Source of the DNA: an uncultured Chloroflexia bacterium
GTDB taxonomy: Bacteria; Chloroflexota; Limnocylindria; Limnocylindrales; CSP1-4
Length of the DNA: 64,000 nucleotides
Reading direction: 5' to 3'
Assembly: GCA_963817095.1 (NCBI GenBank)
Contig: CAWFND010000002.1
Location: forward strand, 34,841-98,840
This document shows positions 4,357-62,275 of the stretch, in pieces. Numbering within the stretch: the stretch's first letter is position 1; every line of letters begins with the position of its first letter. Both the position numbers and the translations under genes were made by a program. The notes beneath the pieces are model-generated. The model was not told where the DNA came from. It did not search any database and saw only the letters and a program-made list of their open reading frames with translations.

Positions 4357-5452
4357 ATGACCCACGTGTTCGTCGCGCCGCATCCCGATGACGTTGCGCT
4401 CTCCTGCGGGGGGCTGATCGCGAGCCTCCGGGAGCTCGGCCAGAACGTGACGATCGTGACGGTCTTCTCCGGGGCTGGCGGTCGCCGGCGCGAACGGCGC
4501 ACGCCTGACCGGCTACCAGCGCGAGGCGCTCGGGTTCGGGTCCAAGACGATCTGGCCCGTCACGGAGTCCTTCAACCGGGCGCACATCCGCGCCGACTTC
4601 CCGGTCTACGGCGACCCGGACATGCTGCCCGCGTGGGCCGCGACCGACGACCGGCTCGAGGCGACACAGGGCGACGCGGACGCCGCCGCAAAGCGGTTCT
4701 GGCAGCGCTCGTCGTGGTACCGCCGGGCGAGCATCCGGAGCCAGCCGCTCGCCGGGCAGCCGCTGATGGACGAGCTCAGCACGCAGGGCCCGATCGCGAC
4801 CGAAGAGCTCGTCGACGAGGCGGCCGCCGGCGACCCGATGGCGAAGCGACGTCTCGAGGACGAGACGTTCGCGGCCTTCGCGGAAGCCTCGATCGTCTTC
4901 CTCGACCTGCCCGACGCGGTCTTCCGCGGGTACGAGAACGACGACGAGCTCCTGAACACACCCCGCGTCGACGATGCGGCGCCGTTCGACATCCTTCGCC
5001 GCGAGATCGTCCGTCTCGAGCCGCAGAAGCTGTACCTGCCGCTCGGCGTGGGCAACCACGTCGATCACCAGCTCTGTCGCGACGTCGGGGTGAGCCTGCT
5101 CGAGGAGGGCCGCCGCTGGGTCATGCCCGGTCCCGAGTACGCCGGCATCGTCACGTTCTACGAGGACTTCCCGTACGCGTGGTGGAACGACTTCACGAAG
5201 CTCGAGGACCTGCCGGCCCACGCGCTGGCGAAGGTGCCGCCGGACGTCGGCCTCGCGCCCGACTACGCGGACATCGCCGACCAGCTCGAGCGCAAGATCA
5301 CCGGCATCAACATCTACACGAGCCAGATCGAGCGGCTGTTCACGTCGACGAAGGAGATGGCGCGCCAGGTCCGCGCCAACGCGCGGAAGACGGCGCTGCT
5401 GGGAGGGACGTCGGGCTCGGCCGAGCGCTACTGGTCGACAAAGCCGGCGTAG
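4357..5452 (+). pseudogene. PIG-L/LmbE-family N-deacetylase, reading frame broken once as sequenced
   Basis: The N-terminus MTHVFVAPHPDDVALSCGG...TVFSG is in the frame of ORF 4228. The remainder (LTGYQREALGFGSK...GNHVDHQ...) is in the frame of ORF 4622..5452. Removing one G from the G4 run at 4471-4474 joins the two frames. Confidence 0.8.
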
Positions 5453-5553
5453 GCGGGCACGACAGGCGCGAGCGGGCGCGCCCGGTACCAACGAACCCTA
5501 CCGAGCGCTCGCACGGGCTGGGATGATCGGCGCATGCAGGAGCGCCTGAGCCG

Positions 5554-6837
5554 ATGCTGATGAACCTCGGCCGAGCGGACGTCTCCACGCCCGGATCGCG
5601 GCGCGCGTCGGCGATCATCGTGTTCGCCGTCGCCCTGGGCGTGGCGATGCTCGTCCGGATCGCGCTGTGGCCGACCCTCGGCCTCGTCGGCGACCTCGAC
5701 CAGTTCGTGCTGTGGGTCCACGGAATCGCGACCGCGCCGTTCTCCCACGCCTACGACCAGGACATCGCGTTCCCGCCGGTCATGGCCTACATCTGGAGCG
5801 TGCTCGCCGCAGCCGAGCCGGCCTTCCGGACCGTGACGACGTCGGCGGACCCGGCGATCCGGGCGATCATGAAGGCGCCGGCCAGCATCGCCGACCTCGC
5901 CATCGCCGGCCTGATCGCCTGGCACCTCCGCGCGACCCCGAAGTGGGCGATCGGTGGCGCCCTGCTCGTGCTCCTCCACCCGGCCGTGATCGACGTCAGC
6001 GCCTGGTGGGGCCAGTACGAGTCGATCTACGTCCTGTTCGGGGTCCTGGCGTTCGTCCTTGCCGTCCGCGGCCACTCCCTGTTCGCCGCCGCCGCGCTCG
6101 CCGTCGCGCTGATGACGAAGCCCCAGGCAGTGCCGTTCATCGTCCCGTTCGCGGCCTGGTTCCTGGCCCGTGACGGCTGGAGAGGGGCGCTGAAGGCCGC
6201 CGCGGTCGGCGCGGCGGTCGTGGCCCTGCTCTGGCTGCCGTTCATCCCGGCGGGCGGCGTCCAGGGCTACGTCCACAACCTGGCGGCGTACCAGGGCGAC
6301 GTCTACGCGATCCTGTCGCTCCGGGCGTGGAATCTGTGGTGGCTCGTCCAGGAGCTGCTCGCCGGCGGCTCATTCGTCTCGGACCAGAGCGCGATCCTCG
6401 GCCCGATCACGTTGCGCCACGTCGGGTACGCGCTCGCCCTGCTCGGCGAGCTCGCCGTCTTCGTCCTCGTCTATCGGGCCCGCTCGCCGAAGGCCCTCGC
6501 CCTCGGCCTCGCGGCGGCCGCCCTCGTCGCCTTCAGCCTGCTCACGACGATGCACGAGCGCTACGCCTTCGGTGTCCTCGCCTTCCTCCCGCTCGCGTTC
6601 CCCGACCGTCGCGTCCTCGGGCTCACGATCGTGTTCGGCGTCGCCTACACGCTCAACCTGCTCGCCGCCGCGCCGCCGTCGGAGGCGATCGGCTCGGCGA
6701 TCCCGATCGGTGGACCGCTCGGGGTGCTCGGCTCGATCACGATCCTCGCGGTCCTCGGTGGGATCCTGGTGCTCCTCGCCGACGAAGCCCGGTTCGCCAC
6801 TCAACGAGTCACCCTGATGCCGGACCTGACGCGATGA
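5554..6837 (+). CDS. Polytopic GT-C-type membrane glycosyltransferase-like protein (large class)
   Basis: Intact 427-aa ORF with about 10 or more TM helices. The N-terminal loop (DLDQFVLWVHGIA...) resembles GT-C/DUF2029 enzymes. Its stop overlaps the next gene's start (ATGA at 6834-6837). Confidence 0.65.
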   Translation: MLMNLGRADVSTPGSRRASAIIVFAVALGVAMLVRIALWPTLGLVGDLDQFVLWVHGIATAPFSHAYDQDIAFPPVMAYIWSVLAAAEPAFRTVTTSADPAIRAIMKAPASIADLAIAGLIAWHLRATPKWAIGGALLVLLHPAVIDVSAWWGQYESIYVLFGVLAFVLAVRGHSLFAAAALAVALMTKPQAVPFIVPFAAWFLARDGWRGALKAAAVGAAVVALLWLPFIPAGGVQGYVHNLAAYQGDVYAILSLRAWNLWWLVQELLAGGSFVSDQSAILGPITLRHVGYALALLGELAVFVLVYRARSPKALALGLAAAALVAFSLLTTMHERYAFGVLAFLPLAFPDRRVLGLTIVFGVAYTLNLLAAAPPSEAIGSAIPIGGPLGVLGSITILAVLGGILVLLADEARFATQRVTLMPDLTR

Positions 6838-7658: not shown

Positions 7659-8329
7659 CCACTTCCGGAGCTGGAAGTTGCTCTGGCCGGCGGTCCGGTC
7701 GCGCCACGTCGTCGGGATCTCGGCGACCCGCCGGCCACCGAGGGTGGCCTTGACGGTCAGCTCCAGCGCAAGCTCGAAGCCGGCGGTGCTCTCGATCGGC
7801 GTCGCCTCGAGGAACGTGCGCCGATAGAGCTTGAAGTTGTTCGTCGGGTCATGGGTGGGGACGCCGGCGATCCAGTGCAGGCTCAGCCCGGCGGTCCGGC
7901 TCATCAGCCGCTTCAGCAGCGGTCCGCCGATCTGGTGGCCGCCCTTCATGTAGCGGCTCGCGGCGACGACGTCGGCGCCGTCGTGGGCCCGCGCCACCAT
8001 CCGGTCGACGATGTGCGGCTCGTCCGAGCCATCTGCCATCGAGATGAGGACGAGGGGTCCGGTCGGTCCCGGCGATCCCCGCCTTCATCGCGTTCAGGAC
8101 GCCCCGTCCCAGGTCGTTGCGGAGGCCACGGAGAACCGGGATCTCGGCCGCGAGCCGGGCGATGACCGGAACGGTCGTGTCGCCGTCGAAGTCGTACACG
8201 ACGACGAGCTCGTGCGACGTGGCGATCCCCGCATGGAGGGCCCGGAGGACGGGCTCGACGGCCTCGCCCTCGTTGTAGACGGGCAGGACGACCGACAGCT
8301 CGGGGAGCGTCGTTCAGGAATTCGGTCAT
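7575..8329 (-). pseudogene. GT2 polyprenyl-phosphate (Dpm1/GtrB-like) glycosyltransferase, two frame breaks as sequenced
   Basis: There are three fragments. The first is MTEFLNDA, the second is PELSVVLPVYNEGE...VVVYDFDGDTT...NAMKAGIAGTDRT, and the third is LVLISMADGSDEPHIV...FKLYRR. Removing one base from the G4 runs at 8302-8305 and 8054-8057 restores a single frame. Confidence 0.85.
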
Positions 8330-8443
8330 GGGTTGAGCATAGGCATCGGTCGGTCGTTCGCGACAGCCCAACTCGGTCCGTCGGGGCCGGCGGAGAAATT
8401 CAGGGTGGCAATTTCGGCCCAAACCGTCGAAAGTGCTCCCCCC

Positions 8444-9243
8444 ATGGAGCTCGCGCCAGCGCTCAAGGTCAACCGATGGGCCGTCCCGGCCGAGCGGTTC
8501 ATCCGAAACGAGCTGCTCCTGCTCGGGATCCTCATCACGTCGGAACGGTCATGCCCCTCCTCCTCGGCGCCGCGTCGGGGGCGGTCGAGATCGCGCGGAA
8601 CGATGACTGGTCGTACCGCCGGATTGCCCTGGAGCTCTGGCAGACGGGCAAGCTCGTCTTCGACAACGTGGCCGCCCCGATGCTCATCGGCCAGATCCTG
8701 CTGGTCCAGCCTCTGCTCTGGCTGATCCACGGCGACAGCCTGGCGTTCGCCATCGGAGGATCCGATCGGGTCGCTGTTCGCGACGCTCGGCGTCTACTGC
8801 GTCGGGGCGTTCGCTGCGGCGTCAGCCGTCGGCGCCGGCGCCTGGCTCTTCGTTGGCTCCGCTCACCGTGCTGACCCTCCAGGGCCTCCTCGCATTCATG
8901 CTCATGGCGAATGCGTTCGCATTCGATGCCGGACGCTGGCGCGGCGGCGAGGACCTCGTAGGGACGAGCCTCGGGCCGGACACGATCGATGCTGGGTACG
9001 AGTGGGTGGGGTACCACGCGACGACGCCTGCGAACCTCTGGCAGCCGGATTCCAACCGCCCCGTCGTACCGCGGATGGTGGGCGGGGTTCCGGACCTGCG
9101 GCCTCGTGACGGGGTCACCGGATCCACCCGCGCACGGGCGCCTGATGGGGATCGAACGCTACCGCCTCTACCTCGTCGCAGGCCCGCTCGTCGATCTCTA
9201 CCTGTTCGGGATCGACGATCCGTCGTGCACGACGGGCCGTTAG
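8444..9243 (+). pseudogene. Membrane protein (NDDWSY motif, GT-C-associated look), reading frame changes about 4 times
   Basis: Protein-like, high-GC3 pieces occur in alternating frames. In order they are MELAPALKVNRW..LLLLGILITS, VMPLLLGAASGAVEIARNDDWSYRRIALELW.., IGSLFATLGVYCVGAF.., LAPLTVLTLQGLLAFML..GYEWVGYHATT.. and GIERYRLYLVAGPLVDLYLFG. Confidence 0.5.
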
Positions 9244-9473
9244 GTGCCCGTCGGCGAGTCCTCGATCGAGACCACGTCGGCCGAGTCCTCGGTCGAGGCT
9301 GCGGGGTCCGACCCTGGCCCCTCGGCCGGAGGAGCCGGCTGCGTCGCGGCTGTGACCTCGGGCTCGTCGCCGAAGATCGGGTTCGGTTGCGTCGTCGGCC
9401 AACCGCCGTGATCGGTCGCGCGCCCACCGCCGTACTTCTCGCGGCGTCGTTCCTGTCGATTCGGTTCTGGCAT
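9240..9473 (-). CDS. Small hypothetical protein with a basic N-terminus and an acidic C-terminus
   Basis: 77-aa ORF (MPEPNRQERRREKYGG...EDSADVVSIEDSPTGT) with reasonable GC3. It is the last gene of the minus-strand operon. No family recognised. Confidence 0.4.
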   Translation of the reverse strand: MPEPNRQERRREKYGGGRATDHGGWPTTQPNPIFGDEPEVTAATQPAPPAEGPGSDPAASTEDSADVVSIEDSPTGT

Positions 9474-9498
9474 GCGGCGATCATCGCACGCCGGTCCG

Positions 9499-10534
9499 TC
9501 AGCCCGTACCGGGCTCGGCAGTCACGAGTCCTGGCGCGCCGGGCGAACGCGGTTCGACCGACGGGACCAGTGTGACTGCAGATGCATAGCGGTACGCCGC
9601 CAAGCCCAGCAGGACGGGTGCGAGGAGCCAGAAGCTGAAGACATTCAAGGGGATCGCGCAGACGACGAACTCCATCCAGGCGACGTCATCACGGAGATCG
9701 GCACGATCAGGAACAAGCCCAACAAGCCGACTGCGACAAGCCTCGTGATCAGGACGGTGTCAACTCCTGGGACGAGGCGCTGGAGCAAGACGGACGGAGC
9801 GACATTCGTGGCAATGACCTGCTCGATGTTCTGGAATGCGACGAGAAAATCGGACAGGACATTGCTTCCGGTGATCAGGCAGAGGCCAAGCACGACGCCG
9901 ACCGCCGCCGCGGTTGCAGCGATCAGTGGCCTTGTCCTGCCTGTGCGGACCATGTAGATCGCCAGGGGCACGGCAGGAACGATCTTGATCGAAGCGAGGA
10001 AAACGCCAACTGCCAGGAGTGACGACCGATTCTGCCGCACGCCGATCACCCATACGACCAATCCGAGAACGACGAGGGCTTCTGCGTTCGCCCAAGCGAC
10101 AACCATCCACAAGGGCGTCGAGGTCACCAGCAGCGCGATCGTCAGAAGCCGATGTCGAGAGGGCACGGCAAGGACGACCGCGAGCGTCATCGCGATCACG
10201 ATGGTGAGCCACCAGACGGTCGCTCCGAGAATTGCCGGCAGGGCCGCCGCCGGGACGACCAATGGCAGGAACCACGGGGGCATGTTGAACATGCCGCTGA
10301 ATGCCGGAGACAGATAGTCGTATGGGCCGGCCAACAGCCGCGGGTCGTACAGCGGCAGGCCGCGAACCAGTCGGTCGAATCCATCGCGATACGTTGCCCA
10401 ATCGGCCCGAGGACCGACGGATATCTCGCGTAGGGGATCAACAGCTCGTTGAGGATCAGTCCGACAAGCAGCAGCGACACCCACGGGCGATCCGAACCCG
10501 GCGGCCATGCGACGCGGCGACGGATCTCGCGCAC
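9499..10534 (-). pseudogene. GT87/DUF2029-like polytopic membrane protein, two frame breaks, lower GC3 than its neighbours
   Basis: The N-terminus VREIRRRVAWPP..LLLVGLILNELLIPYA (ORF 10196..10534) comes first. The core LPLYDPRLLAGPYDY...ASIKIVPAVPL (ORF 9645..10508) follows. The C-terminus VAWMEFVVCAIPLNVFSFWLLAPVLLGLAAYRY is in a third frame and ends at 9499. Confidence 0.6.
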
Positions 10535-10545
10535 GTGGCCAACCG

Positions 10546-11562
10546 TCAGGAACGTTGCGGGGCGGCCGTGAGTTCAGGCTGGTCGGGGTCGAAGGACGAC
10601 GAGCGCATCCACGCGGCCGTTCGCTCGAGGCCCGAGGTCAGCGTGACCTGCGGCGCCCAGCGGAGCATCCGACGGGCTTTCTCGATGTTCACGACGCGGC
10701 GCCGGATGTTGTCGATGTCGCGGCGGTCGATGTGCACGACGTCGACGTCGACGCCCACGGCCCGGCCGATCTTCAGGGCGAGATCGTTGACCGACGTCTC
10801 GATGCCGGTCCCGACGTTGAACACCTCGCCCTCGGCCCGGGGGCGGATCGCCGCGAGGAGGGTCGCGTCGACCGCGTCGTCGATGTACGTGTAGTCGCGG
10901 GTCTGCTCGCCGTCGCCGTGGACCTGGAGGGGCTTGCCGTCGATCGCGGCGGCGAAGAACTTGGCGATGACGCCGCAGTACGGGTTGTCCGGGCGCTGGC
11001 CGACGCCGAAGACGTTCGAGTAGCGGACGACCGAGACCGGGACGCCATAGTTCTCGTAGAAGGCATTGCAGTACAGCTCGCCACCGAGCTTGCTGACCGC
11101 GTACGGCGAGAGGGCGACCGGCGGATCGTCCTCGTTGATCGGGATCGATCGGGGATTGCCGTAGATCGACGTGGAGCCGGTGTAGACGATCCGGTCGACC
11201 TTCGAGTCGCGCGCCGCGAGGAGGATGTTCAGCGTCCCGCCGATGTTCGTCGAGAAGTCCTCGCGCGGGTCCTTCGTGCTCGCGATGATGTTCCGGGCGG
11301 CCATGTGGAAGACGACCGAGGCGTCGGCGACGAGCTCGCGGACGAGGGCCTCGTCGACGACGGTTCCGGTGACCAGCTGGGCGCTCGTGGGGACCGTTTC
11401 GGCCCGCCCGGTGAAGAGGTCGTCGAGGACCGTGACGCGGGCGCCGGCCTCGGCCAGGCGGCGAGTCACGGCACCACCCACGAAGCCGGCACCGCCGGTG
11501 ACGAGGACGCGCCGGCCGGAGAAGGCTCGGGCGACCTGGTCGGTCATCCGTGGCTCGGTCAT
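10546..11562 (-). CDS. NAD-dependent nucleotide-sugar epimerase/dehydratase (extended SDR)
   Basis: VLVTGGAGFVGG Rossmann motif and catalytic YAVSK. Intact 338 aa. Confidence 0.9.
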   Translation of the reverse strand: MTEPRMTDQVARAFSGRRVLVTGGAGFVGGAVTRRLAEAGARVTVLDDLFTGRAETVPTSAQLVTGTVVDEALVRELVADASVVFHMAARNIIASTKDPREDFSTNIGGTLNILLAARDSKVDRIVYTGSTSIYGNPRSIPINEDDPPVALSPYAVSKLGGELYCNAFYENYGVPVSVVRYSNVFGVGQRPDNPYCGVIAKFFAAAIDGKPLQVHGDGEQTRDYTYIDDAVDATLLAAIRPRAEGEVFNVGTGIETSVNDLALKIGRAVGVDVDVVHIDRRDIDNIRRRVVNIEKARRMLRWAPQVTLTSGLERTAAWMRSSSFDPDQPELTAAPQRS

Positions 11563-11575
11563 CGGGTCGTGGCCG

Positions 11576-12343
11576 TCATCGCTTCACCCCGGCGCGCAGG
11601 AGGATTGCCGGCCGGAACAGCCGCCACCAGTCCTTCAGGCCACGCATCTTCGTGTAGCCCTCCCTGGCGTGGTAGCGGACGGTGCACGGCACCTCGATCA
11701 CCTTGTACCCGCGACGGATCGACTTGTACAGCACGTAGGGCTCCAGGTCGTAGCTCGTGAGCCAGTCCTGGTCGAGGTCGATCTTCGGGTCGCGGAGGAT
11801 GTCGGCCTTGAAGATCCGGAAGCCGTTCGTCGCATCGGTGACGCGGCGGAAGACGAGGATCGAGAAGACGACCGAGTAGAGCCGCGTGCCGAAGCTGCGG
11901 TGTCCGATCGGGCCCACGACCCGGCCGCCCTTGCGCCAGCGGGAGCCCTGGGCGTAGTCGGCGCCGGCGGCCTCGAGGGCAGCGAGCGCGGTGATCAGCT
12001 CCGCGGGTTCGTGCTGATCGTCGCCGGACAGGAGGGCGAGGTACTTGCGCTCGCGCCGGAGCCCTTCCTTCCAGCCATCGCGGATCGCGGCACCCACGCC
12101 TCCGCGCTCCTCGTGGCGGATGACGACCGCAGCGCCGTGCTCGCGCGCCTCGTCGCCCGTCCCATCCGTGGAGCCGTCATCGACGACGATCGCCTCGAAC
12201 CAGCCGCTCGTGGGCAGCTTGTCGAGGACGCGGCCGATCTTGCCGGCCTCGTTGAGGGCGGGAATGATGACGGCGACGATCGGCGTGACGGGGGGCGGCC
12301 GATCGCCCTCCACGGCGGTCGGCACAGGCGATTCTGCTTCCAC
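11576..12343 (-). CDS. GT2 glycosyltransferase (polyprenyl-phosphate sugar synthase-like)
   Basis: VAVIIPALNE...VVDDGSTDGT...LSGDDQHEP (DxD-like)...NGFRIF. Intact 255 aa. Confidence 0.85.
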   Translation of the reverse strand: MEAESPVPTAVEGDRPPPVTPIVAVIIPALNEAGKIGRVLDKLPTSGWFEAIVVDDGSTDGTGDEAREHGAAVVIRHEERGGVGAAIRDGWKEGLRRERKYLALLSGDDQHEPAELITALAALEAAGADYAQGSRWRKGGRVVGPIGHRSFGTRLYSVVFSILVFRRVTDATNGFRIFKADILRDPKIDLDQDWLTSYDLEPYVLYKSIRRGYKVIEVPCTVRYHAREGYTKMRGLKDWWRLFRPAILLRAGVKR

Positions 12344-12547
12344 GTGTCCCCGGGCTGCTCACGGAGGGATAGAGCGCCGCCATCGTGGCCCTCGATGGTG
12401 CCAGTCGGCAACCCCCCACGAGTACCAACGCCCTCCGGCTGACCAGAATCGTGATTGCACGGCGGCGCCGCGATTCGTCGGCCGCGGAGCTGACGTGCGC
12501 GACCCGGCGAGGGCGATCGTTCGGCACGCCGTGGCGCGACAACGACC

Positions 12548-13577
12548 TCAGCCAGCCGGTGCAGGCTCCGTTCGACCGCTGAAGTCCAAGCCTCGGGCGC
12601 CTTCGGTCCACGGGGCGGCCAGGGCGAGCAGCGATACGAGACCCGATGCGTACAGCGCGGGCGTTCCGAGGACCGATGCAAGAAGGGCGGCAATGAACGA
12701 AGCGCGCGGCCATCGGCTTCCGAGCAGCCAGCTCGCGACGAACCCGAGCACCAAGAACGCATAGCTGGCCCAGGAGATGCCCGTGAGCCCGGAGATGCTC
12801 AACTCTGTCGGCTGATTGCCGGAGAGCGTCCCGAGGTAGGCCACGTATGACCCGGGCCCTGCCCCGATCGCGCCGAGCGCGAACATGAAAGCCAACGCCG
12901 CGAACGCAGCGCCGACAGCGGCCCAGCGCCGGCCACCGGCCATCCAGCCCGTCATGGCCATCGGCGACAGCTTGATCGAGGCAGCGAAGCCGATCAGCGC
13001 GCCGGAGGCAGGCCGCGCTCGAAGCCGCCACACCAGCGATGTACAGCGCGGGCATGAACGCGTTGACATTCGCGACGGCCAACTGTTCACCGATCGCGTG
13101 TGAGAGCAGGAGGGCGAGCAGGACCCCGGGCAGACCAGTCTTGACGACGACGAAGAGGACCGTACCGAGCAAGGCAACCCAACACGCGACCACCCAGAGC
13201 GTGATCCCCCAGTCCACGGCGGCGAGCGGACGCCACAGGACAGCGATCGGCGGCGGCGAGAGCAACGGGGCGGTGTAGAGGCCAGGAATCGTCAGCACCG
13301 GCAGGTCGCCCGGGACCAAGTGGTAAAGGTCGTGTCCGATGTTCAGCCGATCTCCCGCTGCCCGATATGTCATGGCGTCGGTGAACGGCTCCATGAGGTT
13401 GCCGGGTTCGTTGTAGACGGAAAAGTTCGCGGATGTCCAGGCGAGGGCGGTGCCCACGACCAGCGCGATGAGCAACACGTTGAGGATCCTGCGGATCGTC
13501 GGGCTCACCGGACGATTCGGGATCCGAGCGATTCGAGGGACCTCGGGCCTGATCCCGGGTTCCAGAACGTTGGTCAC
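12548..13577 (-). pseudogene. GT87/DUF2029-like membrane protein (paralog type B), one frame break
   Basis: GTG 13577 forms a GTGA overlap with the upstream stop. The N-terminal part carries PLLSPPPIAVLWRPLA...NVNAFMPALYIAG. The C-terminal part (ORF 12548..13177) carries WRLRARPASGALIGFAASIKLSP. The whole protein is colinear with 34847..35773, and the break lies at ~13030-13045. Confidence 0.7.
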
Positions 13578-51342: not shown

Positions 51343-51513
51343 ATGTCCGTTCTGAATGCACTTATCGCATCCTTCCGCCGGGATGAGGACGGCCAGGGTC
51401 TCGCCGAGTACGCGCTGATCCTCGCCCTCATCGCGATCGTGGCGATCATCGCCCTGATCTTCCTCGGCACCCAGGTCAGCACGATCCTGTCGAAGGTCGG
51501 CGCCTCCGTCTGA
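51343..51513 (+). CDS. flp: Flp-family type IVb pilin (copy 3)
   Basis: MSVLNALIASFRRDEDGQG followed by a mature part identical to copies 1-2. An aaggagg SD lies upstream. Confidence 0.9.
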   Translation: MSVLNALIASFRRDEDGQGLAEYALILALIAIVAIIALIFLGTQVSTILSKVGASV

Positions 51514-51525
51514 CGCAGCACCGAT

Positions 51526-51561
51526 GAACCGCCGGGCCGCATCGCGCGGTGCCGGCGGTTC
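51526..51561 (+). terminator. Imperfect GC-rich hairpin after flp copy 3
   Basis: gaaccgccgg...ccggcggttc outer arms with inner ccgc/gcgg pairing. Confidence 0.45.
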
Positions 51562-51625
51562 GTCGTCTCCGGCCCCTTGTGGCCTGGGCGGTGCGTCACC
51601 GCGCCGCCCTGTACCAAGGGACCTA

Positions 51626-51653
51626 TTGACAGGCACGTCACACGGCCTACCGT
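51626..51653 (+). promoter_or_regulatory. Candidate promoter of flp copy 4 (TTGACA-N16-TACCGT)
   Basis: -35 ttgaca at 51626-51631 and -10 taccgt at 51648-51653. Confidence 0.45.
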
Positions 51654-51729
51654 GCGTCGTGCCGGGGGCGCGCCTATCCCGACCTCCGGGAGCGCCCATT
51701 CGGGACGTTCGACGGAAGGAGGTGAATCA

Positions 51730-51921
51730 GTGTCCCAGTTCCGGCGGATCGCCGCCCGGTTGCGTCAGACATGGCGTGACGAAGACGGCCAGGGTCTGGC
51801 CGAATACGCACTCATCCTTGCGCTCATCGCGATCGTCGCCATCGTTGCCTTGATCTTCATGGGGCAGCAGGTGAGCAACAAGCTCAGTGTCATCGGAAGC
51901 ACGATCCAGTCCGTGCAATAA
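51730..51921 (+). CDS. flp: Flp-family type IVb pilin (copy 4, divergent mature region)
   Basis: GTG 51730 lies within ORF 51577..51921, with an aaggaggtg SD. Sequence: VSQFRRIAARLRQTWRDEDGQGLAEYALILALIAIVAIVALIFMGQQVSNKLSVIGSTIQSVQ. Confidence 0.85.
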   Translation: MSQFRRIAARLRQTWRDEDGQGLAEYALILALIAIVAIVALIFMGQQVSNKLSVIGSTIQSVQ

Positions 51922-51943
51922 CCAGCGGCACCGCACCACATTC

Positions 51944-51978
51944 GAACGGCCCGTCCGGGCTCTCCGGACGGGCCGTTC
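51944..51978 (+). terminator. Perfect 15-bp GC-rich hairpin after flp copy 4
   Basis: gaacggcccgtccgg-gctct-ccggacgggccgttc. No clear U-tract follows. Confidence 0.5.
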
Positions 51979-52090
51979 GGCGTCTCCGGAGGGTCGCGCG
52001 CAACGTCTCGCCGCGGCACCGACAAACATTGCGATTTGCCTTGCGTCGTGCGTGATTTCCTCCCGTTTCTTCCCTATGGTCCTAGCCCAT

Positions 52091-52099
52091 TGGTATAGT
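52091..52099 (+). promoter_or_regulatory. Candidate extended -10 promoter (TGgTATAGT) for the cpaB-tadC operon
   Basis: cattGGTATAGTcgc lies in the only locally AT-richer stretch (52020-52100), ~60 nt upstream of the cpaB start. Confidence 0.45.
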
Positions 52100-52160
52100 C
52101 GCGCGCCCCGAACCCGGTGCTACAGTGGTGCCACCTGTCACACGGCTCGGGAGACCTATC

Positions 52161-53069
52161 TTGAAGCGCTCGAATCGGCTTGTCCTGCTCGTCGGGGTGT
52201 TCCTGGCGGTCGTTGCGTTTGTCGGAATCGCGCTGTTGCTGAACAACGGCGGCTCGACGACCAACAACAACAACACCGCGGTCCCGACACAGCTTCCGAC
52301 TGTCATCGCGAAGCAGGACATCAACCTCGGGGTGACTGTCACCGCTGACATGCTCGATACGCAGACGATCGACGTGACCAACCGAAAGGCGACCGCGTAC
52401 GGTGATCCGAGCCAGGTCGTCGGGCAGGTCGCGCGCCGGCCGATCAAGGCCACCTCGCAGCTCGAGACGGCCGACTTCGACACGAGCGGCACCGGCGTGA
52501 CGACGATCACCGTTCCTCCGGGCATGCGAGCGATCTCCGCCCAGGTCGACCAGGTCTCCGGCGTCGGCACCGTGATCAACACGGGCGACTACGTCGACCT
52601 CCTCGTCGGCTTCACCGGTGACAAGTTCCCGGTCGTGACGGTGAACCCGCAGGACAACTCGATCAGCGTCGTCAGCGGCCTCAACGGGACGAGCGTGAAG
52701 CTCCTCCTCGAGGGCATGCAGGTCCTCGGCCGGCAGCTCCCGCCCCCGACCACGACCCAGGCCCAGCAGCCTGCCGAGAACGGACAGACGCCCAGCGGAC
52801 AGCCGACGACGTCGCTCAACGGCCAGCAGGAGATCGTCATCCTGGCGGTGACCCCGGCCCAGGCCGAGGTGATCAAGTTCGCCCAGCTGGACGGCTCGAT
52901 CAGCCTCGTCCTCCGCTCCTCGAAGGACTTCGTCGACGACCAGGGCAACCCGGTCGTGACCCCGCCGAGCGGCACGGACGGCATCACCCTCAAGAAGCTC
53001 ACCACGGACTTCGCGGTTCCGATCCCGGAGCTCGTCGAGGCCATCCTCCCCGCCCAGGCCAAGCGCTAG
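52161..53069 (+). CDS. cpaB: Flp pilus assembly protein CpaB/RcpC-like
   Basis: LKRSNRLVLLVGVFLAVVAF TM anchor, then SAF-like VIAKQDINLGVTVTADML and RcpC-like VPPGMRAISAQVD..GDYVDLLV. The TTG 52161 start fits the family better than the ORF-track start at 52125. Confidence 0.8.
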   Translation: MKRSNRLVLLVGVFLAVVAFVGIALLLNNGGSTTNNNNTAVPTQLPTVIAKQDINLGVTVTADMLDTQTIDVTNRKATAYGDPSQVVGQVARRPIKATSQLETADFDTSGTGVTTITVPPGMRAISAQVDQVSGVGTVINTGDYVDLLVGFTGDKFPVVTVNPQDNSISVVSGLNGTSVKLLLEGMQVLGRQLPPPTTTQAQQPAENGQTPSGQPTTSLNGQQEIVILAVTPAQAEVIKFAQLDGSISLVLRSSKDFVDDQGNPVVTPPSGTDGITLKKLTTDFAVPIPELVEAILPAQAKR

Positions 53070-53222
53070 CCGGCCGAGGCACCACGCCGGTCGCGAGAGC
53101 CACCGGTCGAACGAGCCAAGCGCGACGGGCGCGTCGGACTCCGGTCCCCGCGCCCGTCCAACGCTCCGGGGACCCGTTCCCCGGCCACCCCCAGCAGCGA
53201 GACCTACCGGACCACTGAACGA

Positions 53223-54482
53223 ATGGCCGACCAGATCCGCGTCCTGATCGTGGACGACATCCCGGAGACCCGCGACCACCTGACGAAGCTTCTCGGGTTC
53301 GAGAGCGACATCGAGGTGGTCGGGTCCGCCGCCTCCGGCAGCGAGTCGCTGTCGATGGCCGGCGAGCTGCTCCCGGACGTCGTCCTCATGGACATCAACA
53401 TGCCCGACATGGACGGGATCGCCGCGACCGAGAAGCTCTCGTCGCAGGTGCCGAGCGCCTCGGTCGTGATGATGTCCGTCCAGGGCGAAGCCGACTACCT
53501 CCGCCGGTCGATGCTCGCGGGAGCCCGCGAGTTCCTCGTCAAGCCGTTCAGCAGCGACGAGCTGACCGCCTCGATCCGCCAGGTCTACACGCGCGAGCAG
53601 GACAAGCTCAGCCGGATGGCGATCGCGCCGGTCGCGGCCGGTTCGCCTCCGCGCGGCGCCGCCGGCGGCGGCGAGGACGGCCAGGAAGGCCAGGTCGTCG
53701 CGATCTTCAGCCCGAAGGGCGGGGTCGGCCGCACGACGGTCGCCGTCAACCTTGCGGTCGCCGCGGCGACGGAGCTCGGCAAGACGGTCGTGCTCGTCGA
53801 CGGGTCGTTCCAGTTCGGCGACGTCGGCGTGCTCCTGAACCTGAACCCGAAGAACAAGTCGATCGCGGACCTGGTGCCGGAGCTGGAAGCCGGCGAGCCC
53901 GAGTCGCTCGACACGTTCATCATCAATCACTCCGCCGGGATCCGGGTGCTCCTCGCCCCGCCGTCCCCGGAGATGGCCGAGCTGATCACGCCGTCCGGCG
54001 TCCGCCGGGTCCTGGAGGCGCTCCGCCGTCACCACGACCTGGTGATCGTCGACTGCACGTCGTGGTTCAACGAGACGACGCTCGCGATCCTCGATGCCTC
54101 GGACATCGTCCTGACGATGCTCAGCCTCGAGATCACGAGCATCAAGAACATGCGGTTGTTCCTGGAAGTCGCCGAGCAGCTCGGCTACGACCAGCAGAAG
54201 GTCAAGCTCGTCCTCAACCGGGCGGACTCCAGTCTCGGCATCCGCGTCTCCGACGTGGAGAGCTCGATCGGCCGGAAGGTCGATCACACCATCGTCAGCG
54301 ACGGGCGGTCCGTCGTGTACGCCCTCAACCGGGGAGTACCGTTCTTCCTGTCCAACCGGGAGGCGCAGGTCTCCCAGGACATCCTCCGTCTGGCCCAGTC
54401 GATCGCCGGGGAACGGGCCGCTGCCCCGAGCGACGAGGCACGCAAGACGGCCCAGAAGAAGTCGTTGTTCTCATTCCGATGA
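53223..54482 (+). CDS. cpaE: CpaE/TadZ-like ParA/MinD ATPase with an N-terminal response-regulator receiver domain
   Basis: REC domain (RVLIVDD, VVLMDINMPDMDG, LVKPF) plus a deviant Walker A (IFSPKGGVGRTTVAVNLA). Intact 419 aa. Confidence 0.85.
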   Translation: MADQIRVLIVDDIPETRDHLTKLLGFESDIEVVGSAASGSESLSMAGELLPDVVLMDINMPDMDGIAATEKLSSQVPSASVVMMSVQGEADYLRRSMLAGAREFLVKPFSSDELTASIRQVYTREQDKLSRMAIAPVAAGSPPRGAAGGGEDGQEGQVVAIFSPKGGVGRTTVAVNLAVAAATELGKTVVLVDGSFQFGDVGVLLNLNPKNKSIADLVPELEAGEPESLDTFIINHSAGIRVLLAPPSPEMAELITPSGVRRVLEALRRHHDLVIVDCTSWFNETTLAILDASDIVLTMLSLEITSIKNMRLFLEVAEQLGYDQQKVKLVLNRADSSLGIRVSDVESSIGRKVDHTIVSDGRSVVYALNRGVPFFLSNREAQVSQDILRLAQSIAGERAAAPSDEARKTAQKKSLFSFR

Positions 54483-54530
54483 TGTCGTCGGTCACAGCGG
54501 CCCAACGCGGCGCGATAAGGGGTTGATGCG

Positions 54531-55946
54531 ATGTCTTTGCTGAAGCGGATCGAGAGCGCTCGTCCGGGCGCCGGGCCGGCTCCGGCCTCCACCGGAGTGC
54601 CGGCTCCCGGGCGGGTCCGGCCGCCCCGAGCGGACCGTCCGGAGGCGACGCCACCGGCCCAGCGCCTGATGACCCAGGCGCCGGTCCGGGAGTCGTTCCG
54701 TGACGTCAAGTTCCGGATCCAGAGCCGGGTCATCCAGGACCTGGACCCGAAGCTCGACCTGTCGAACCAGGTCGAGGTCCGGCGCCAGATCGAGGAGATC
54801 TTCGGCAAGGTCATCGACGAGGAAGGCCTCGCCCTGACCCGCGCCGAGCGCGTCCGGATGCTCGAGCAGATCACCGACGAGATCATCGGCCTCGGCCCGT
54901 TGGAGCCCCTCCTCCGCGACGAGTCGATCTCGGAGGTCATGGTCAACGGCCCGCGCCAGGTCTACATCGAACGCTCGGGCAAGCTCGAGCTGACGAACGT
55001 CGTCTTCCAGAACGACGACCACGTCATGCGGATCATCGACCGGATCATCGCCCCGATCGGTCGCCGCGTCGACGAGTCGTCGCCGATGGTCGACGCCCGA
55101 CTGACCGACGGCTCCCGCGTCAACGCGATCATCCCGCCGCTGTCCCTCGTCGGCCCCGTCATCACGATCCGGAAGTTCTCCGCGTCGCCGTTCACGGTCG
55201 ACGACCTCGTCCGGTTCGGCACGGCAACTCCCGACATGTTCGACTTCCTCCGCGCCTGCGTGGAAGCCAGGCTGAACGTCTTCGTCTCCGGCGGCACGGG
55301 CTCCGGCAAGACCACGACCCTGAACGTCCTCTCCTCGTTCATCCCGAACGACGAGCGGATCGTCACGATCGAGGACGCGGCCGAGCTCCAGCTCCGCCAG
55401 GAGCACGTCGTCACGCTGGAGTCGCGCCCGCCGAACATCGAAGGCAAGGGCGCCATCCCGATCCGCGAGCTCGTCCGGAACTCCCTCCGGATGCGGCCCG
55501 ACCGGATCATCGTCGGAGAGTGCCGCGGCGGTGAGGCGCTGGACATGCTCCAGGCCATGAACACCGGTCACGACGGCTCGATGTCGACCGGCCACGCCAA
55601 CAGCCCGCGCGACATGCTCGCCCGTCTCGAGACGATGGTCCTCATGGCCGGCGTCGACCTCCCGGTCCGCGCCATCCGCGAGCAGATCGCCTCGGCGGTC
55701 GACCTGATCGTCCAGCAGAGCCGCCTCAAGGACGGGACCCGGAAGATCGTCAACATCACCGAGGTCCAGGGCATGGAAGGCGACGTCATCGTCATGCAGG
55801 ACGTCTTCGTCTTCGAGCAGACCGGTGTCGTCGAAGGCAAGATCCAGGGCCGCCTGAAGGCGACCGGGATCCGGCCCAAGTTCGTCGAGAAGTTCGAGGT
55901 GATGGGCATCCATCTGCCTCCGGGCCTCTTCGGCTTCAGCTACTGA
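54531..55946 (+). CDS. cpaF: CpaF/TadA secretion ATPase
   Basis: Walker [15 protein letters not shown], Asp box [11 protein letters not shown], Walker B/His box [15 protein letters not shown]...[15 protein letters not shown]. Confidence 0.95.
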
Positions 55947-55965
55947 ACGCGGAGGAGGCCACGGA

Positions 55966-56979
55966 ATGCCAGTCATGACGCTCGTCGTCGCGGGCGTCGC
56001 CGCCGCCGCGATCTTCCTGATCGCGATCGGCATCGCGACGTCCGGCAGCGGCTCCGGCGTGAGCGCCCGTCTCGAGCGGTACGCATCGGCTCGCCAGAGC
56101 GGCAAGCCCGAGGCGTCCGGTCAGGGCGGCATCGCCGACCTGCTCGCGCAGTCCGTCGCCCTCGCCCAGCTGAACCGGGTCGTCGAGAACCGCGACTTCG
56201 GGGCGAACCTCGCCCGCGACATCGCCCGCGCCGACCTGAAGCTCAAGCCGTCCGAGTTCCTGGCGATCTGGGCCGGCTCCATCATCGGGATCCCGTTCCT
56301 GTTCGTCGTCCTGTCGCTCGGCCTGCCGGCCCTCCGCAGCCCGATCGCACTTCTCGTGGGCGCGTTCATCGGGTTCATGCTCCCGCGCTTCTGGCTGGGC
56401 CGTCGCAAGGCCGGCCGGCTGGGCGCGTTCAACAAGCAGCTGCCCGACACGATCACCCTCCTCGCCAACGGCCTCCGCGCCGGCTCGTCGTTCCTCCAGG
56501 CCGTCGAGCTCGTCGTCCGCGAGTCGCGGCCGCCGATGTCGACCGAGTTCAGCCGCGTCATTCGCGAGGTCAACCTCGGCCTGCCGTTCGAGCAGGCGAT
56601 GGAGAACATGGTCCGCCGCGTCCGGTCCGACGACCTGGAGCTGATGGCGACCGCGATCAACATCCAGCACACGGTCGGCGGCAACCTCGCCGAGATCCTC
56701 GACTCGATCGCCTACACGATCCGCGAGCGCATCCGGATCCAGGGCGAGATCCGCACCCTCACCGCGCAGCAGCGCCTGTCGGGCTACGTGGTCGGCTTCC
56801 TGCCGATCGGCCTCGCCGGCTTCCTGTTCATCGCGGCCCCGCACTTCATGGATCCGATGTTCCAGAAGCCGCCGGAGGCCCTGGGACTGCCGCTCGGCAT
56901 GGTCATCCTGTTCTTCGGCGGATTCATGATGTTCATCGGCTTCATGCTGATCCGCCGCATCGTCGACATCGAGGTCTAG
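55966..56979 (+). CDS. tadB: TadB-like type II secretion system F-family membrane protein
   Basis: T2SSF-type sequence (LPDTITLLANGLRAGSSFLQAVE...) with flanking TM helices. Intact 337 aa. Confidence 0.85.
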   Translation: MPVMTLVVAGVAAAAIFLIAIGIATSGSGSGVSARLERYASARQSGKPEASGQGGIADLLAQSVALAQLNRVVENRDFGANLARDIARADLKLKPSEFLAIWAGSIIGIPFLFVVLSLGLPALRSPIALLVGAFIGFMLPRFWLGRRKAGRLGAFNKQLPDTITLLANGLRAGSSFLQAVELVVRESRPPMSTEFSRVIREVNLGLPFEQAMENMVRRVRSDDLELMATAINIQHTVGGNLAEILDSIAYTIRERIRIQGEIRTLTAQQRLSGYVVGFLPIGLAGFLFIAAPHFMDPMFQKPPEALGLPLGMVILFFGGFMMFIGFMLIRRIVDIEV

Positions 56980-56982
56980 CCG

Positions 56983-57930
56983 ATGCCCCCGATCCTCCCG
57001 ATCCTCATCGCCGCCGTCGCGGCGGGGGCGATCCTGCTGATCGCCCTCGGCCTCGCGGGCGGCTCGCCGGTCGACCCGGTCCAGGCCCGCCTGACCCAGC
57101 TGGGCACGATGCAGGCGAAGAACCTCGAAGAGCTGGAGCTCCAGGCTCCGTTCCTCGAGCGGACCCTTCGCCCGATCGCCGCGCAACTGTCCGGCCGCCT
57201 GTCGCGGGTTGCCAGCAACTCGTTCCAGGAGCGGACGGAGAAGCGACTCGCCCTCGCCGGCAACCCCGGCAACCTGCGGGTCTCCGACTGGCTCGGCATC
57301 AAGGCCGTAGCCGCGGTCGTGGGCGCCGTCCTGTTCCTGCTCCTCTTCGGCGTCGTCGGCCTCCTCGGCCTGCCGCCGATCCTGCGCCTCCTCATGGGCG
57401 CCATCGGCCTGATGTTCGGCTACACGATCCCGGAGTTCTGGCTCGGCGGGCGCGTCAAGAAGCGCCAGCACCTGATCCTCCTCCAGATCCCGGACGTCCT
57501 CGACCTGCTGACGATCTCCGTCCGGGCCGGCCTCGGCTTCGATGCCGCCCTCGGCAAGGTCGTCGAGAAGATGGAGGGGCCGCTCGTCGACGAGTTCCGC
57601 CGAGCGCTGGCCGAGGTCCGCGTCGGCAAGGCGCGCCGCGACGCGCTCCGCGACATCGTTCCCCGGACCGAGGTCCCGCCGCTGACGAACTTCATCGGCG
57701 CGATCATCCAGGCCGAGCAGCTGGGTGTCTCGATCAGCAAGGTGCTCCAGGTCCAGTCGGAGCAGCTCCGGATCGAGCGCCGGCAGCGCGCCGAGGAGCA
57801 GGCGGCGAAGGCGCCGATCAAGATGCTCTTCCCGCTCGTCGGGTGCATCTTCCCGTCGCTGTTCATCGTCATCCTCGGGCCGGCGATCATCCTGATCATG
57901 CAGAACCTGACGGCGAACCCGGGCACGTGA
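56983..57930 (+). CDS. tadC: TadC-like type II secretion system F-family membrane protein
   Basis: LQIPDVLDLLTISVRAGLGFDAALGKV..., C-terminal TM pair. Intact 315 aa. Confidence 0.85.
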   Translation: MPPILPILIAAVAAGAILLIALGLAGGSPVDPVQARLTQLGTMQAKNLEELELQAPFLERTLRPIAAQLSGRLSRVASNSFQERTEKRLALAGNPGNLRVSDWLGIKAVAAVVGAVLFLLLFGVVGLLGLPPILRLLMGAIGLMFGYTIPEFWLGGRVKKRQHLILLQIPDVLDLLTISVRAGLGFDAALGKVVEKMEGPLVDEFRRALAEVRVGKARRDALRDIVPRTEVPPLTNFIGAIIQAEQLGVSISKVLQVQSEQLRIERRQRAEEQAAKAPIKMLFPLVGCIFPSLFIVILGPAIILIMQNLTANPGT

Positions 57931-58394
57931 TCGAGCCCGGCGCCGCGCCGGAACCCTCCTCGGAGCCGTCAGCCCACCCGCCAGCCGCCGAACCGGACCC
58001 GGGCGCCGCGAGCGCCGACGGGTCCGGCGGCATGTCCGTCCGGAACGTCAGCCGCGGGACGGTGCTCGCCGCCGACGTGGAGACGGCCGCGGGTCTGTGG
58101 GGCAAGTTCATGGGCCTGATGGGCCGGCCGACGCTCGCGAGCGGGGCCGCGTTGTGGCTGCCCGAGAGCAACGGCATCCACATGATGTTCATGCGATTCG
58201 CGATCGACGCGGTGTTCGTCGGCCGGCCGGACGCCGCCGACGGCTCGCGTGCCGTGCTGTCGGTGCACGAGCACCTGCCCGCGTGGCGTGGCCTGGTCCC
58301 GCTCGTGCGAGGCGCCCACGGCGTGCTCGAGCTGCCGGCCGGCACGATCGCGGCGACGGGAACGAGCGTCGGAGACCGGCTGCTCCTCGCCTGA
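57927..58394 (+). CDS. DUF192-domain protein, translationally coupled to tadC
   Basis: GTG 57927 forms a GTGA overlap with the tadC stop (ATG 58032 is an alternative start). Core sequence: GLWGKFMGLMGR..ALWLPESNGIHMMFMRFAIDAVFV...VLELPAG. Confidence 0.7.
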   Translation: MIEPGAAPEPSSEPSAHPPAAEPDPGAASADGSGGMSVRNVSRGTVLAADVETAAGLWGKFMGLMGRPTLASGAALWLPESNGIHMMFMRFAIDAVFVGRPDAADGSRAVLSVHEHLPAWRGLVPLVRGAHGVLELPAGTIAATGTSVGDRLLLA

Positions 58395-60239: not shown

Positions 60240-60846
60240 GTGAGGACGATCGTCAAGGGCAAGAACATCGACGTCCCCGACAACGTCCGGGCGTACGCCG
60301 AGCGGAAGCTGTCCCGCCTCGAACGGATCCTCGACGACCGGAGCGACGCGCTCGTCGAGCTGTCCGTGGAGCAGTCCCGGAGCCTGGCGGACAGCCACAT
60401 CGTCGAGGTCACCCTCGTGATCGACGGTCACACCCTGCGGACCCACGCCGCCGCGTCGACCCATCGCGCGGGCGTGGACGAGGTCGTCGACAAGCTCGAG
60501 CGGCGCGCGGTCGACCACCGCGAGAAGCCGCGGGTCCGCGCCCGACCCGTCGAGGAGAAGGCGATCCTCCGGCAAGATCGCCGACGGCACCGCCGAGCGC
60601 GCGCGAGAGAGCCGGATCGTCAAGACGAAACGCTTCGCGATCGAGCCGATGTTCGCGGAGGACGCCCTCGAGCGGATGGAGGAGCTGGGCCACCGGTTCT
60701 TCGTCTTCGTCGACGCGGAGAGCGAGCGGGTGGCGATCCTCTACCGCCGGAACGACGGCGACTTCGGCCTGATCGAGCCGATGGTCGGTGGCGAGTACAC
60801 GAAGGGTCGAAGCAAGACGGCGAGTCGCAGCAACGGCCGCAACTGA
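60240..60846 (+). pseudogene. hpf: Long-form ribosome hibernation promoting factor, one frame break
   Basis: GTG 60240 follows ggagg. The N-terminal domain is VKGKNIDVPDNVRAYAERKLSRLERIL. The C-terminal dimerisation domain (RIVKTKRFAIEPMFAEDALERMEELGHRFFVFVD) is in the frame of ORF 60649..60846. The break lies at ~60571. Confidence 0.85.
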
Positions 60847-60850: not shown

Positions 60851-61198
60851 TCAGGCGTCCGGCAGGGCCGGTGCCATCGGCCGCGCCCGTCGGTAGATCC
60901 CCGCTTCGCGCGTCATGAGCCTCCCGTCGACCAGGTAGCGTCGGAGCGCAGCCACGTCCGGGTGCAGGAGGGCAAGCCGCATGTTGACCTCCTTCTCCTC
61001 GTACGGGCGGTCCTCCGGGAAGCACCGGTCGAGGATCACGGGAAGGAGCAGGTCGCGCTTGCCCGGCTTGGCCGGGATCGAGACGAGCCGGCCGTCGCGG
61101 AGGAACGCGCGGACCACCCTCTCCTGCTCGGTCAGGCGCCGGGTCGGCGGCTCGGTCGCGGGCCCGACCGGGCGGGACGGGTCGGTCGCGCCGGACAT
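60851..61198 (-). CDS. DUF2087-like small protein
   Basis: Intact 115 aa: VVRAFLRDGRLVSIPAKPGKRDLLLPVILDRCFPEDRPYEEKEVNMRLALLHPDVAALRRYLVD. Confidence 0.65.
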   Translation of the reverse strand: MSGATDPSRPVGPATEPPTRRLTEQERVVRAFLRDGRLVSIPAKPGKRDLLLPVILDRCFPEDRPYEEKEVNMRLALLHPDVAALRRYLVDGRLMTREAGIYRRARPMAPALPDA

Positions 61199-61230
61199 GG
61201 GGCGACCGTAGCAGAACCCCGCCCGCTACG

Positions 61231-62275
61231 ATGGCGCCCATGCTTCCCGACGGCCGACGGCTCGGAGCCCACCTCGCGATCGGCGACGGGATGGTCAAGG
61301 CGGCGGACCGGGCGGTCGCGATCGGGGCCGACGCCCTCCAGGTGTTCACGGACAACCCGACCGCGTGGCAGCGTCGGGCAGAACCGTCACCGGAGATCGA
61401 GGAGTTCCGGTCCATCCTGGCCGCCCATGACGTGGCGCCCCTCGCGGTCCACGCCTCCTACCTGATCAACCTCGCCGGGTCCGACGAGACCCTTCGCGCA
61501 CGGTCCCTGGAGCTGCTCGGGTCGGAGCTCGCAGCGGCCGATCGGTTCGGGGCGCGATTCGTCAACGTCCACACCGGGTCGCACGGCGGGAGCGGCCGCG
61601 AGGTCGGGATCGAGCGCCTCGCCGAGGGCATCGCGGAGACTCTCGCGGCGGAGACGGAGACGGCGACGACCACCGCGACGACGACCGAGTCCGGGCACGG
61701 CCCGGTGATCACGCTCGAGAATTCGTCCGGCGGGGGCGCCGGGCTCGGCGTCGACCTCGATGAGTGGGTCGCGATCGCCCGCGCGATCGACCGCGCCGGG
61801 ATCGACCGCGCGAGGGTCGCCTTCTGCATCGACACGGCCCACCTGTGGGGCGCCGGCATCGACGTGTCCACTCCGGCCGGGATCGACGAGCTCCTTTCCG
61901 GGTTCGACGGCGAGATCGGGATTGATCGATTGCCCCTGGTCCACCTGAACGACACGAAGGCCGAGCTCGGCTCGCGGATGGACCGCCACGAGCATCTCGG
62001 AGCTGGTCGCATCGGAGCGATCGGGCTGGCCCATGTCCTCCGCCACGCGCGCCTGGCGGGCGTCGCGTACATCCTCGAGACGCCGGGGATGGACGAGGGC
62101 TACGACGCGATCAACCTCGACCGAGCGCTCGCGCTCGCGCGCGGCGAGCCGCTGACACCGCTCCCGCCGGGCGCCCTGTCGCTGCGCGGGAGCCGCACGC
62201 CGCCACGCCGCGCAACCGGCCGAGCCGCTCCCGCTCGCCGCGGCCGCGGCGACGGCCGCGACCCGCCGCCCGTGA
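61231..62275 (+). pseudogene. nfo: Endonuclease IV (AP endonuclease, xylose-isomerase-like TIM barrel); C-terminal frame probably shifted
   Basis: LGAHLAI..ALQVFTDNP, HASYLINLA, VNVHTGSH, ITLENSSG, CIDTAHLW, HLNDTK..DRHEHLGAG. From ~62195 the adjacent frame has better GC3 (..AAQPAEPLPLAAAAATAATRRP) and stops in a GTGA overlap with GTG 62272. Confidence 0.8.

Follow-up and report, generated by a model that had tools for sequence, protein, structure and literature searches.

Do the frame breaks that recur along a 64,000-nt stretch of a Chloroflexota genome record the decay of its genes or the quality of its assembly? The stretch (here, the window) is C2:34841–98840 of G000, the metagenome-assembled genome (MAG) of an uncultured Chloroflexia bacterium (3.35 Mb, 22 contigs, 71% GC). 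A distant homolog of one protein encoded here carries the label Candidatus Limnocylindrales, which hints at taxonomy and no more. A sequence-only reading had described frequent one-nucleotide breaks in the window, mostly at G/C homopolymers, and had favoured consensus errors over decay. We put the probability at about 0.9 that the breaks are single-base consensus errors, at sites that we infer, of a contiguous, poorly polished MAG, and not decay. On this account the organism's genes are most likely intact, and the frame breaks are not a biological feature.

Frame breaks in the deposited sequence

Because high GC content leaves all six frames open, lists of open reading frames (ORFs) alone were useless here. 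Frame switches were called ab initio with a seven-state Viterbi caller, which used codon log-odds scores trained on 647 long ORFs of G000 and replaced a simple GC3 sliding window that was too noisy. The caller, run on the window at two settings, one of them sensitive, disallows stops by construction; a true nonsense codon would appear as a detour. Junctions seen by tblastn with relatives were accepted only if fragmented MAGs or several relatives backed them, because off-frame 'shadow' ORFs also align in high-GC DNA and because an error in a contiguous relative can pass for a break of the window. A junction at ~32972, seen with G005 only, exemplifies such mimicry and was rejected. Two switches of the caller were dropped as likely gene boundaries, one at 2796, where a low-complexity Ser/Ala/Pro tail precedes a PCMT gene, and one at 14626, at a methyltransferase/epimerase junction.

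This left ~49 single-base breaks in 15–17 genes of the window. The caller's same-strand frame switches fell within ~10 nt of every site fixed by relatives or by paralogous repeats. Uninterrupted ORFs of relatives matched two window frames in turn at ~4470, 8062, 15722, 19918, 20419, 29462, 29806, 49400 and 60560, and at the first seven of these positions the ORFs of G002, G003 and G006 were unbroken. Alignments of G000 DNA with that of four to seven relatives revealed one surplus or one missing base. When the pieces were joined, Pfam domains crossed the junctions in a GT2 glycosyltransferase, the central domain of a UDP-sugar dehydrogenase, both halves of a GT4 glycosyltransferase, a GT87-like protein and an S8 peptidase. 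The stitched proteins reached full length, with equal conservation before and after a break, codon bias was kept in every frame piece, and every break outside a gene remnant at 8444–9228 was a single base. A scan of the tblastn alignments for in-frame stops gave shadow-frame hits only.

One-nucleotide frame breaks are present in the deposited sequence, as codon usage, relatives' ORFs, DNA alignments and Pfam spans all indicate. All eight sites that had been listed individually hold, with those at 8302, 42784 and 45348 placed from ORF geometry only. The comparison with orthologs that had been proposed as a check returned plain uninterrupted ORFs in relatives and no shared frame changes. The earlier count of at least 24 affected genes could not be reproduced, given that we found 15–17 and that 2796 and 14626 look like gene boundaries. 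Nor do the breaks extend to 62275, as had been stated: none lies near there, and the ORF at 61231–63948 is open in a single coding frame.

Breaks across the genome and in housekeeping genes

Rates were compared between genomes with a conservative caller, which counted a switch only if both flanks were at least 150 nt long and the old frame stayed open for more than 45 nt further. G000 gave 831 frame switches genome-wide (0.25/kb), whereas the same caller found 1 in 34 kb of G002, 2 in 36 kb of G003 and 16 in 77 kb of G005. The rate in G000 is 5–8 times higher than in G002 and G003 (0.03–0.06/kb), and the rates track completeness values. G000 pairs high contiguity with low marker completeness (59.3%, with 0.04% contamination, despite only 22 contigs), as consensus errors in an assembly would predict. 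Fragmented assemblies of the same genus include G002 (500 contigs) and G003 (380 contigs, 89% complete); contiguous ones include G005 (6 contigs, 64%), G009 (20 contigs, 64%), G004 (7 contigs, 84%) and G012 (7 contigs, 83%). Part of the shortfall in G000 has another source. The bin apparently lacks the rpoBC/str/S10/spc region: rpoB is not present, and motif scans of G000 found none of RpoC, EF-Tu, EF-G, SecY, SecA and DnaK. The absence of this region lowers completeness separately from the frameshifts.

The absence of rpoB made it unusable as an essential-gene test, and rpoD, recA, trpS and groEL were chosen in its place. All four were broken. RpoD was split between frames into abutting pieces (NCBIfam profile positions 389–506 and 510–629 of 631), RecA at profile positions 1–164 and 166–317 of 321, and TrpS at 31–172 and 181–327, whereas GroEL fell into three pieces (14–237, 239–291 and 312–526). 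RecA and TrpS are single-copy in G000. Since the same damage affects single-copy housekeeping genes outside the window, the breaks inside it read as a data-quality warning and not as biology. Besides RpoD, G000 has one other sigma-70 homolog, at C22:35487–36223; it is group 2-like, 68–76% identical to RpoD regions 2–4, and spread over three frames.

The contiguous siblings G009 and G004 bear the same kind of error. The rpoB gene of G009 (C11:548449–551782) lies in two frames through one surplus C (GGGCCGG against GGG-CGG), and that of G004 (C6:205206–208542) likewise (GCCCGG against G-CCGG); neither surplus C occurs in three other genomes.

The lesions have a consistent signature. Genome-wide, 682 switches in G000 implied a surplus base and 149 a missing base, a ratio of ~78:22 after correction for caller efficiency (93% and 72%) that was consistent across contigs. 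Real gene decay in bacteria is biased towards deletions. Homopolymers, on the other hand, did not attract the breaks as the sequence-only reading had supposed. Genome-wide, 11.4% of the 831 junctions had a run of at least 4 within 12 nt, compared with 12.4% of random coding positions; for runs of at least 3 the figures were 63.5% and 59.0%. The absence of enrichment at runs of at least 4 means that the errors are not concentrated in homopolymers as in the classic Nanopore profile. Several precisely placed indels lie outside runs altogether, among them an extra A at ~24270 and at ~24853, an extra G at 19919 and numerous others between the repeat copies of the S8-FN3 gene described below. In DNA of 70% GC, a G or C run at a frame break means little. 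Consensus error as the interpretation stood, given the housekeeping breaks, the 59% completeness and the 5–8-fold rate; homopolymer miscalling as its general cause did not, given the lack of enrichment, the ~78% of surplus bases and the indels between unlike bases.

The closest known parallel is with Nanopore MAGs, in which indel frameshifts reduce completeness, most at low coverage, and in which frameshift correction lifted one MAG from 85% to 94–95% completeness (PMC8103633); Nanopore-only bins under ~40-fold coverage need polishing (PMC9262707). As in those MAGs, genes of G000 are fragmented genome-wide by single-base indels, completeness is low despite contiguity, relatives assembled from short reads are free of the breaks, and the severity follows local consensus quality. 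Unlike the published profile, which stresses homopolymer indels, G000 has no enrichment at runs of at least 4 and ~78% surplus bases. The assembly would most likely be long-read-only and shallowly covered, a platform that we infer. Its errors are mostly surplus bases and are not confined to homopolymers. Their rate, probably set by local consensus quality, is ~0.3 per kb over the greater part of the window and rises in the S8-FN3 gene, where genome-specific DNA and tandem paralogous repeats may have degraded the consensus.

A hot spot, a gene remnant and the alternatives

Density in the window was 0.31 breaks/kb where at least three relatives align, 0.44 where one or two do and 1.96 where none does. 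Setting the S8-FN3 gene aside lowers the value for DNA that no relative shares to 0.60/kb, an island excess of only about two-fold. The unevenness that the sequence-only reading had stressed is fair as an observation, but it is smaller than it looked and mostly one hot spot, with 0.31–0.60/kb elsewhere. Its two break-free stretches were confirmed, with no breaks under either caller setting. In 32296–38264 the switches are ordinary gene boundaries, with the old frame stopping 2–29 nt from each; the flp/Tad pilus locus at 50545–58389 (plus strand) includes an intact 471-aa CpaF/TadA ORF, 97% identical to the G003 ortholog. Break-free stretches of 6–8 kb are unremarkable because their probability at 0.3/kb is ~0.1–0.15 and the regions were picked after the fact. 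Two segments of the window are variable islands within its glycan/envelope gene region: G002 and G003 link 22.3 kb to 28.9 kb almost directly (22274–28923 missing), and G003, G004 and G005 link 8.3 kb to 13.6 kb (8330–13575 missing).

The hot spot is a gene on the minus strand (23717–28521) that encodes an I9 propeptide, an S8 peptidase, three copies of a ~190-aa domain and FN3 repeats, in DNA that G002 and G003 wholly lack. The sensitive Viterbi setting counted ~26 switches in its 4.8 kb (more than 15 had been reported), dividing it into ~27 frame pieces. In the direction of transcription they lie at 28363, 27919, 27379, 27275, 27223, 27107, 27046, 27015, 26978, 26946, 26887, 26853 and 26523, and further at 26435, 26336, 26253, 26143, 26074, 26017, 25949, 25764, 25682, 25511, 25369, ~24850 and ~24268. 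The error rate is ~5 per kb, reaching ~1.5% of bases in the worst part. Stitching across these switches yielded a complete S8 domain and three paralogous domain copies. The S8 domain then matched Pfam positions 1–273 of 288 in one stretch at 183.7 bits, whereas the separate pieces scored 81.5 and 75.3 bits. The stitched frames are credible because the three copies validate one another. At the DNA level, alignment of the copies (~570 nt each) revealed ~25 single-base indels, mostly between unlike bases. The copies lie in tandem at 25400–27110 (minus strand), flanked by the S8 peptidase and the FN3 repeats, and share the pattern WLG.YG.DGYVLANW...TWYD.NQ.RL.LTF...LYA.DWDA...; this triplicated domain had no Pfam match at E ≤ 0.01.

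In the FN3 array, reading the units against one another confirmed a G4 at 25369–25372 where sibling units have G5, as had been reported. Two further units carry an extra A, at ~24270 (24266–24275) and ~24853 (24849–24858), not in a homopolymer: they read GGCGACGG, whereas siblings read GGCGCGG and the last unit GGCACGG. The extra A looks like a merged G/A consensus and not like a mutation that was later duplicated, and a chimeric consensus fits because the base sits exactly where FN3 units differ. The gene resembles consensus artefacts of tandem repeats, in which reads of different units or strains are merged, in that its worst stretch comprises the triplicated ~570-nt domain and four 291-nt FN3 units and in that the extra A falls in two linkers where units differ, G against A. 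Unlike such artefacts, the breaks also reach the S8 catalytic part, outside the repeats. We attribute the poor local consensus, provisionally, to the low depth of a strain-specific island, to a mixture of strains or to reads misplaced among repeat units.

A second locus differs in kind. At 8444–9228 (plus strand), tblastn, blastn coverage, the Viterbi caller and alignments at 8535 and 9055 delineate the remnant of a membrane (GT-C-like) gene of 582 aa, in five frame pieces with switches at ~8534, 8754, 8857 and 9056. It matches the 582-aa G002 ortholog at residues 1–107 and 453–577 only and lacks ~950 nt, corresponding to residues 108–452. The remnant lies within the 5-kb segment (8.3–13.6 kb) missing from G003, G004 and G005. 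The earlier statement that no large deletions were seen fails here, and its caution that some genes may be real pseudogenes finds one candidate, while the breaks in general are almost certainly not decay. If the window holds a real pseudogene or a structural variant, the remnant is its best candidate.

These two loci supply most of the case for genuine gene decay, at least in an accessory cell-envelope island, with the frameshifts as true mutations: the S8-FN3 gene carries ~26 breaks, the remnant combines four frame changes with a ~950-nt deletion, and density is highest in DNA without relatives. We nevertheless consider decay very improbable as a general account. Breaks in rpoD, recA, trpS and groEL are hard to square with a viable cell, rates differ between contigs of one genome, insertions and not deletions are favoured, and outside the remnant there are only single-base breaks, with codon bias kept and stitched proteins full length and conserved on both sides; the excess in islands, moreover, is only about two-fold once the S8-FN3 gene is set aside. 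In Mycobacterium leprae and Sodalis glossinidius, essential genes are intact, nonsense mutations and larger deletions stand beside frameshifts, and deletions dominate. G000 resembles them in its many frameshifted genes and departs from them in that rpoD, trpS and recA are affected, almost all lesions are single-base and insertions dominate. Essential genes were not spared, and neither mixed lesions nor a deletion bias was found in G000: ~78% of the switches are single surplus bases, and the only large deletion found is that at 8444–9228. A narrower proposal, that the S8-FN3 gene and the remnant belong to a recently inactivated, fast-decaying surface-protease/glycan island, or to an indel-polymorphic population, over a background of assembly error, is speculative and only marginally less improbable.

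An intermediate account, compatible with the reading of the breaks as consensus errors, is that nearly all are assembly errors and a few genes are genuine pseudogenes or remnants, the best case being 8444–9228, with the S8-FN3 gene as a further possibility. We regard this as a tenable minority view and give it distinctly less than even odds. A single-base consensus error does not explain the ~950 nt missing relative to G002, and the surrounding 5-kb segment is absent from three relatives. Against this, G002 is another species, at ~77–85% DNA identity, and the shorter gene could be a variant native to G000; an assembly collapse in a strain-variable region could also have produced the remnant. 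Biological recoding, whether by programmed ribosomal frameshifting, transcriptional slippage or phase variation, could appeal to the breaks that do lie at short runs of G or C (at 4471, 42784 and 45348). It is effectively refuted by the more than 800 sites genome-wide, by the lack of enrichment at runs, which are short (2–4 nt), by the many sites between unlike bases and by the plain uninterrupted ORFs of relatives at the same positions. No slippery motif or long tract was found, nor any shift site conserved in orthologs.

Several observations weigh against consensus error as the whole explanation. The structural deletion of ~950 nt means that at least one locus may be dead, and the 20-fold excess of breaks in a single accessory gene would also be compatible with true decay there. 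Neither the lack of homopolymer enrichment nor the preponderance of insertions is what Nanopore errors typically look like. The break rate differs five-fold between ~200-kb contigs (0.55/kb in C22, 0.13/kb in C21) and correlates with contig GC content (rho 0.37), both of which fit a technical cause, although greater sensitivity of the caller in high-GC DNA may inflate the correlation. For the consensus-error reading, which we retain, the practical consequence is that gene calls, pseudogene counts, completeness and claims of broken pathways in G000 are unreliable without frameshift-aware handling; the contiguous siblings G004, G005 and G009 probably call for the same caution. Descriptions of the kinase trio, the glycosyltransferase paralogs, the S8-FN3 protease and its FN3 'linker insertion' depend on reading through breaks, and none of them should be taken to show that a gene is inactivated.

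Individual broken genes

Near the start of the window, the PIG-L family deacetylase gene (~4357–5449, plus strand) shifts from frame +0 to +1 at 4468–4474 through a surplus base in or beside a G4. The intact G002 ortholog split by tblastn between frame 1 (4357–4503) and frame 2 (4472–5449), five relatives have an uninterrupted ORF, and the G000 stretch is 33 nt long against 32 in G002, in agreement with the surplus base proposed at 4471–4474. The G005 ortholog (contig C5, aligned at window position 4450) has an extra G of its own, AACGTCGACG against AACGTG-ACG. Its position differs from that of the break in G000; the errors are independent in the two genomes.

The GT2 glycosyltransferase gene (minus strand) has two breaks. 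At 8054–8066 there is a surplus base, which had been assigned to the G4 at 8054–8057 and could as well be the GG at 8063–8064, where five relatives, with uninterrupted ORFs, have a single G in the DNA alignment. The stitched protein matched Pfam Glycos_transf_2 positions 1–165 of 168 across the junction. At the N-terminus (8302–8305), the ATG lies 28 nt upstream and one frame off the main frame, in which TGA stops but no start precede ELSVVLPVYNEGE; dropping one C of the CCCC (minus strand) would join MTEFLNDAP to ELSVV. No relative aligns at this site, where the ATG position and ORF geometry imply the surplus base in the G4 that had been listed. A GT87-like membrane protein gene further along the minus strand (12722–13485) has a Viterbi switch at 13003 that implies one surplus base, and its stitched product matched Pfam GT87 positions 4–180 of 237 across the junction at residue 161.

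The UDP-sugar dehydrogenase gene (15288–16466, minus strand) lacks one base at 15723–15731, in a CCC-GGG-CCC context, as seen in alignment with G003, G004 and G005. The central UDPG_MGDP_dh domain crosses the junction, and the stitched protein aligned gaplessly over 393 aa, at 91% identity, with a 398-aa homolog, with the junction on a Pro in DLPGPGFAAGPC; the base that had been proposed for 15723–15725 is well placed. A search for an intact copy from the same species returned none, the closest protein being this 91% identical one. The GT4 glycosyltransferase gene (19775–20957, minus strand) carries two surplus bases. One, at 19918–19920, is not in a homopolymer (ATGCGCG against AT-CGCG); five relatives align there, the ORFs of G002, G003, G004 and G012 are uninterrupted, and Pfam Glycos_transf_1 crosses the junction. 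The other, at 20419–20428 (CCCGG against CCG-G), is crossed by Glyco_transf_4.

Two surplus bases also interrupt an MFS/spermidine-synthase-like fusion gene (28864–31185, minus strand). At 29462–29466 four relatives align and G002, G003 and G004 each have an unbroken ORF; the second site, a Viterbi switch at 29806–29820, is crossed by an 806-aa ORF of G003 and an 846-aa ORF of G004. In a membrane protein gene at 38324–39851 (minus strand), coding potential places the middle 368 nt (38782–39150) in another frame, with one base missing near 38782–38794 and one in surplus near 39150. The break that had been noted at 38791–38794 is upheld by coding potential and ORF structure, whereas the 'LtaS-like' label attached to it is unconfirmed, as neither the raw nor the stitched protein had a Pfam match.

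Two breaks lie towards the ends of membrane glycosyltransferase genes. The GT87 (DUF2029) gene on the minus strand starts at an ATG at 42839 that overlaps the upstream stop as ATGA, and its frame is lost before the first transmembrane helix; no ATG, GTG or TTG occurs from 42835 to 42560 in the main frame, which holds the Pfam GT87 match, so ORF geometry implies a surplus base in the G4 at 42784–42787, where one had been proposed. The PMT_2 (GT-C) gene runs on the plus strand from 43818 to ~45498, with its Pfam PMT_2 domain upstream of the break. The Viterbi caller and ORF geometry imply a surplus base at 45348–45355, near the G4 at 45348–45351 that had been named; no alignment fixes the site. 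Once corrected, the frame terminates at 45498, where it overlaps the following gene as GTGA.

The remaining two breaks are on the plus strand. A HisKA_3 histidine kinase gene (49093–50265) passes from frame +0 to +2 somewhere within 49383–49464, inside a variable linker where the alignment is gappy; the ORFs of G002, G004, G005 and G012 cross it, and the Pfam HisKA_3 domain lies downstream. In the gene for a long hibernation-promoting factor (60246–60802), alignment with G004, G005, G009 and G012 places a surplus base at 60568–60572, between the S30AE and C-terminal domains, whose two Pfam matches flank the junction.

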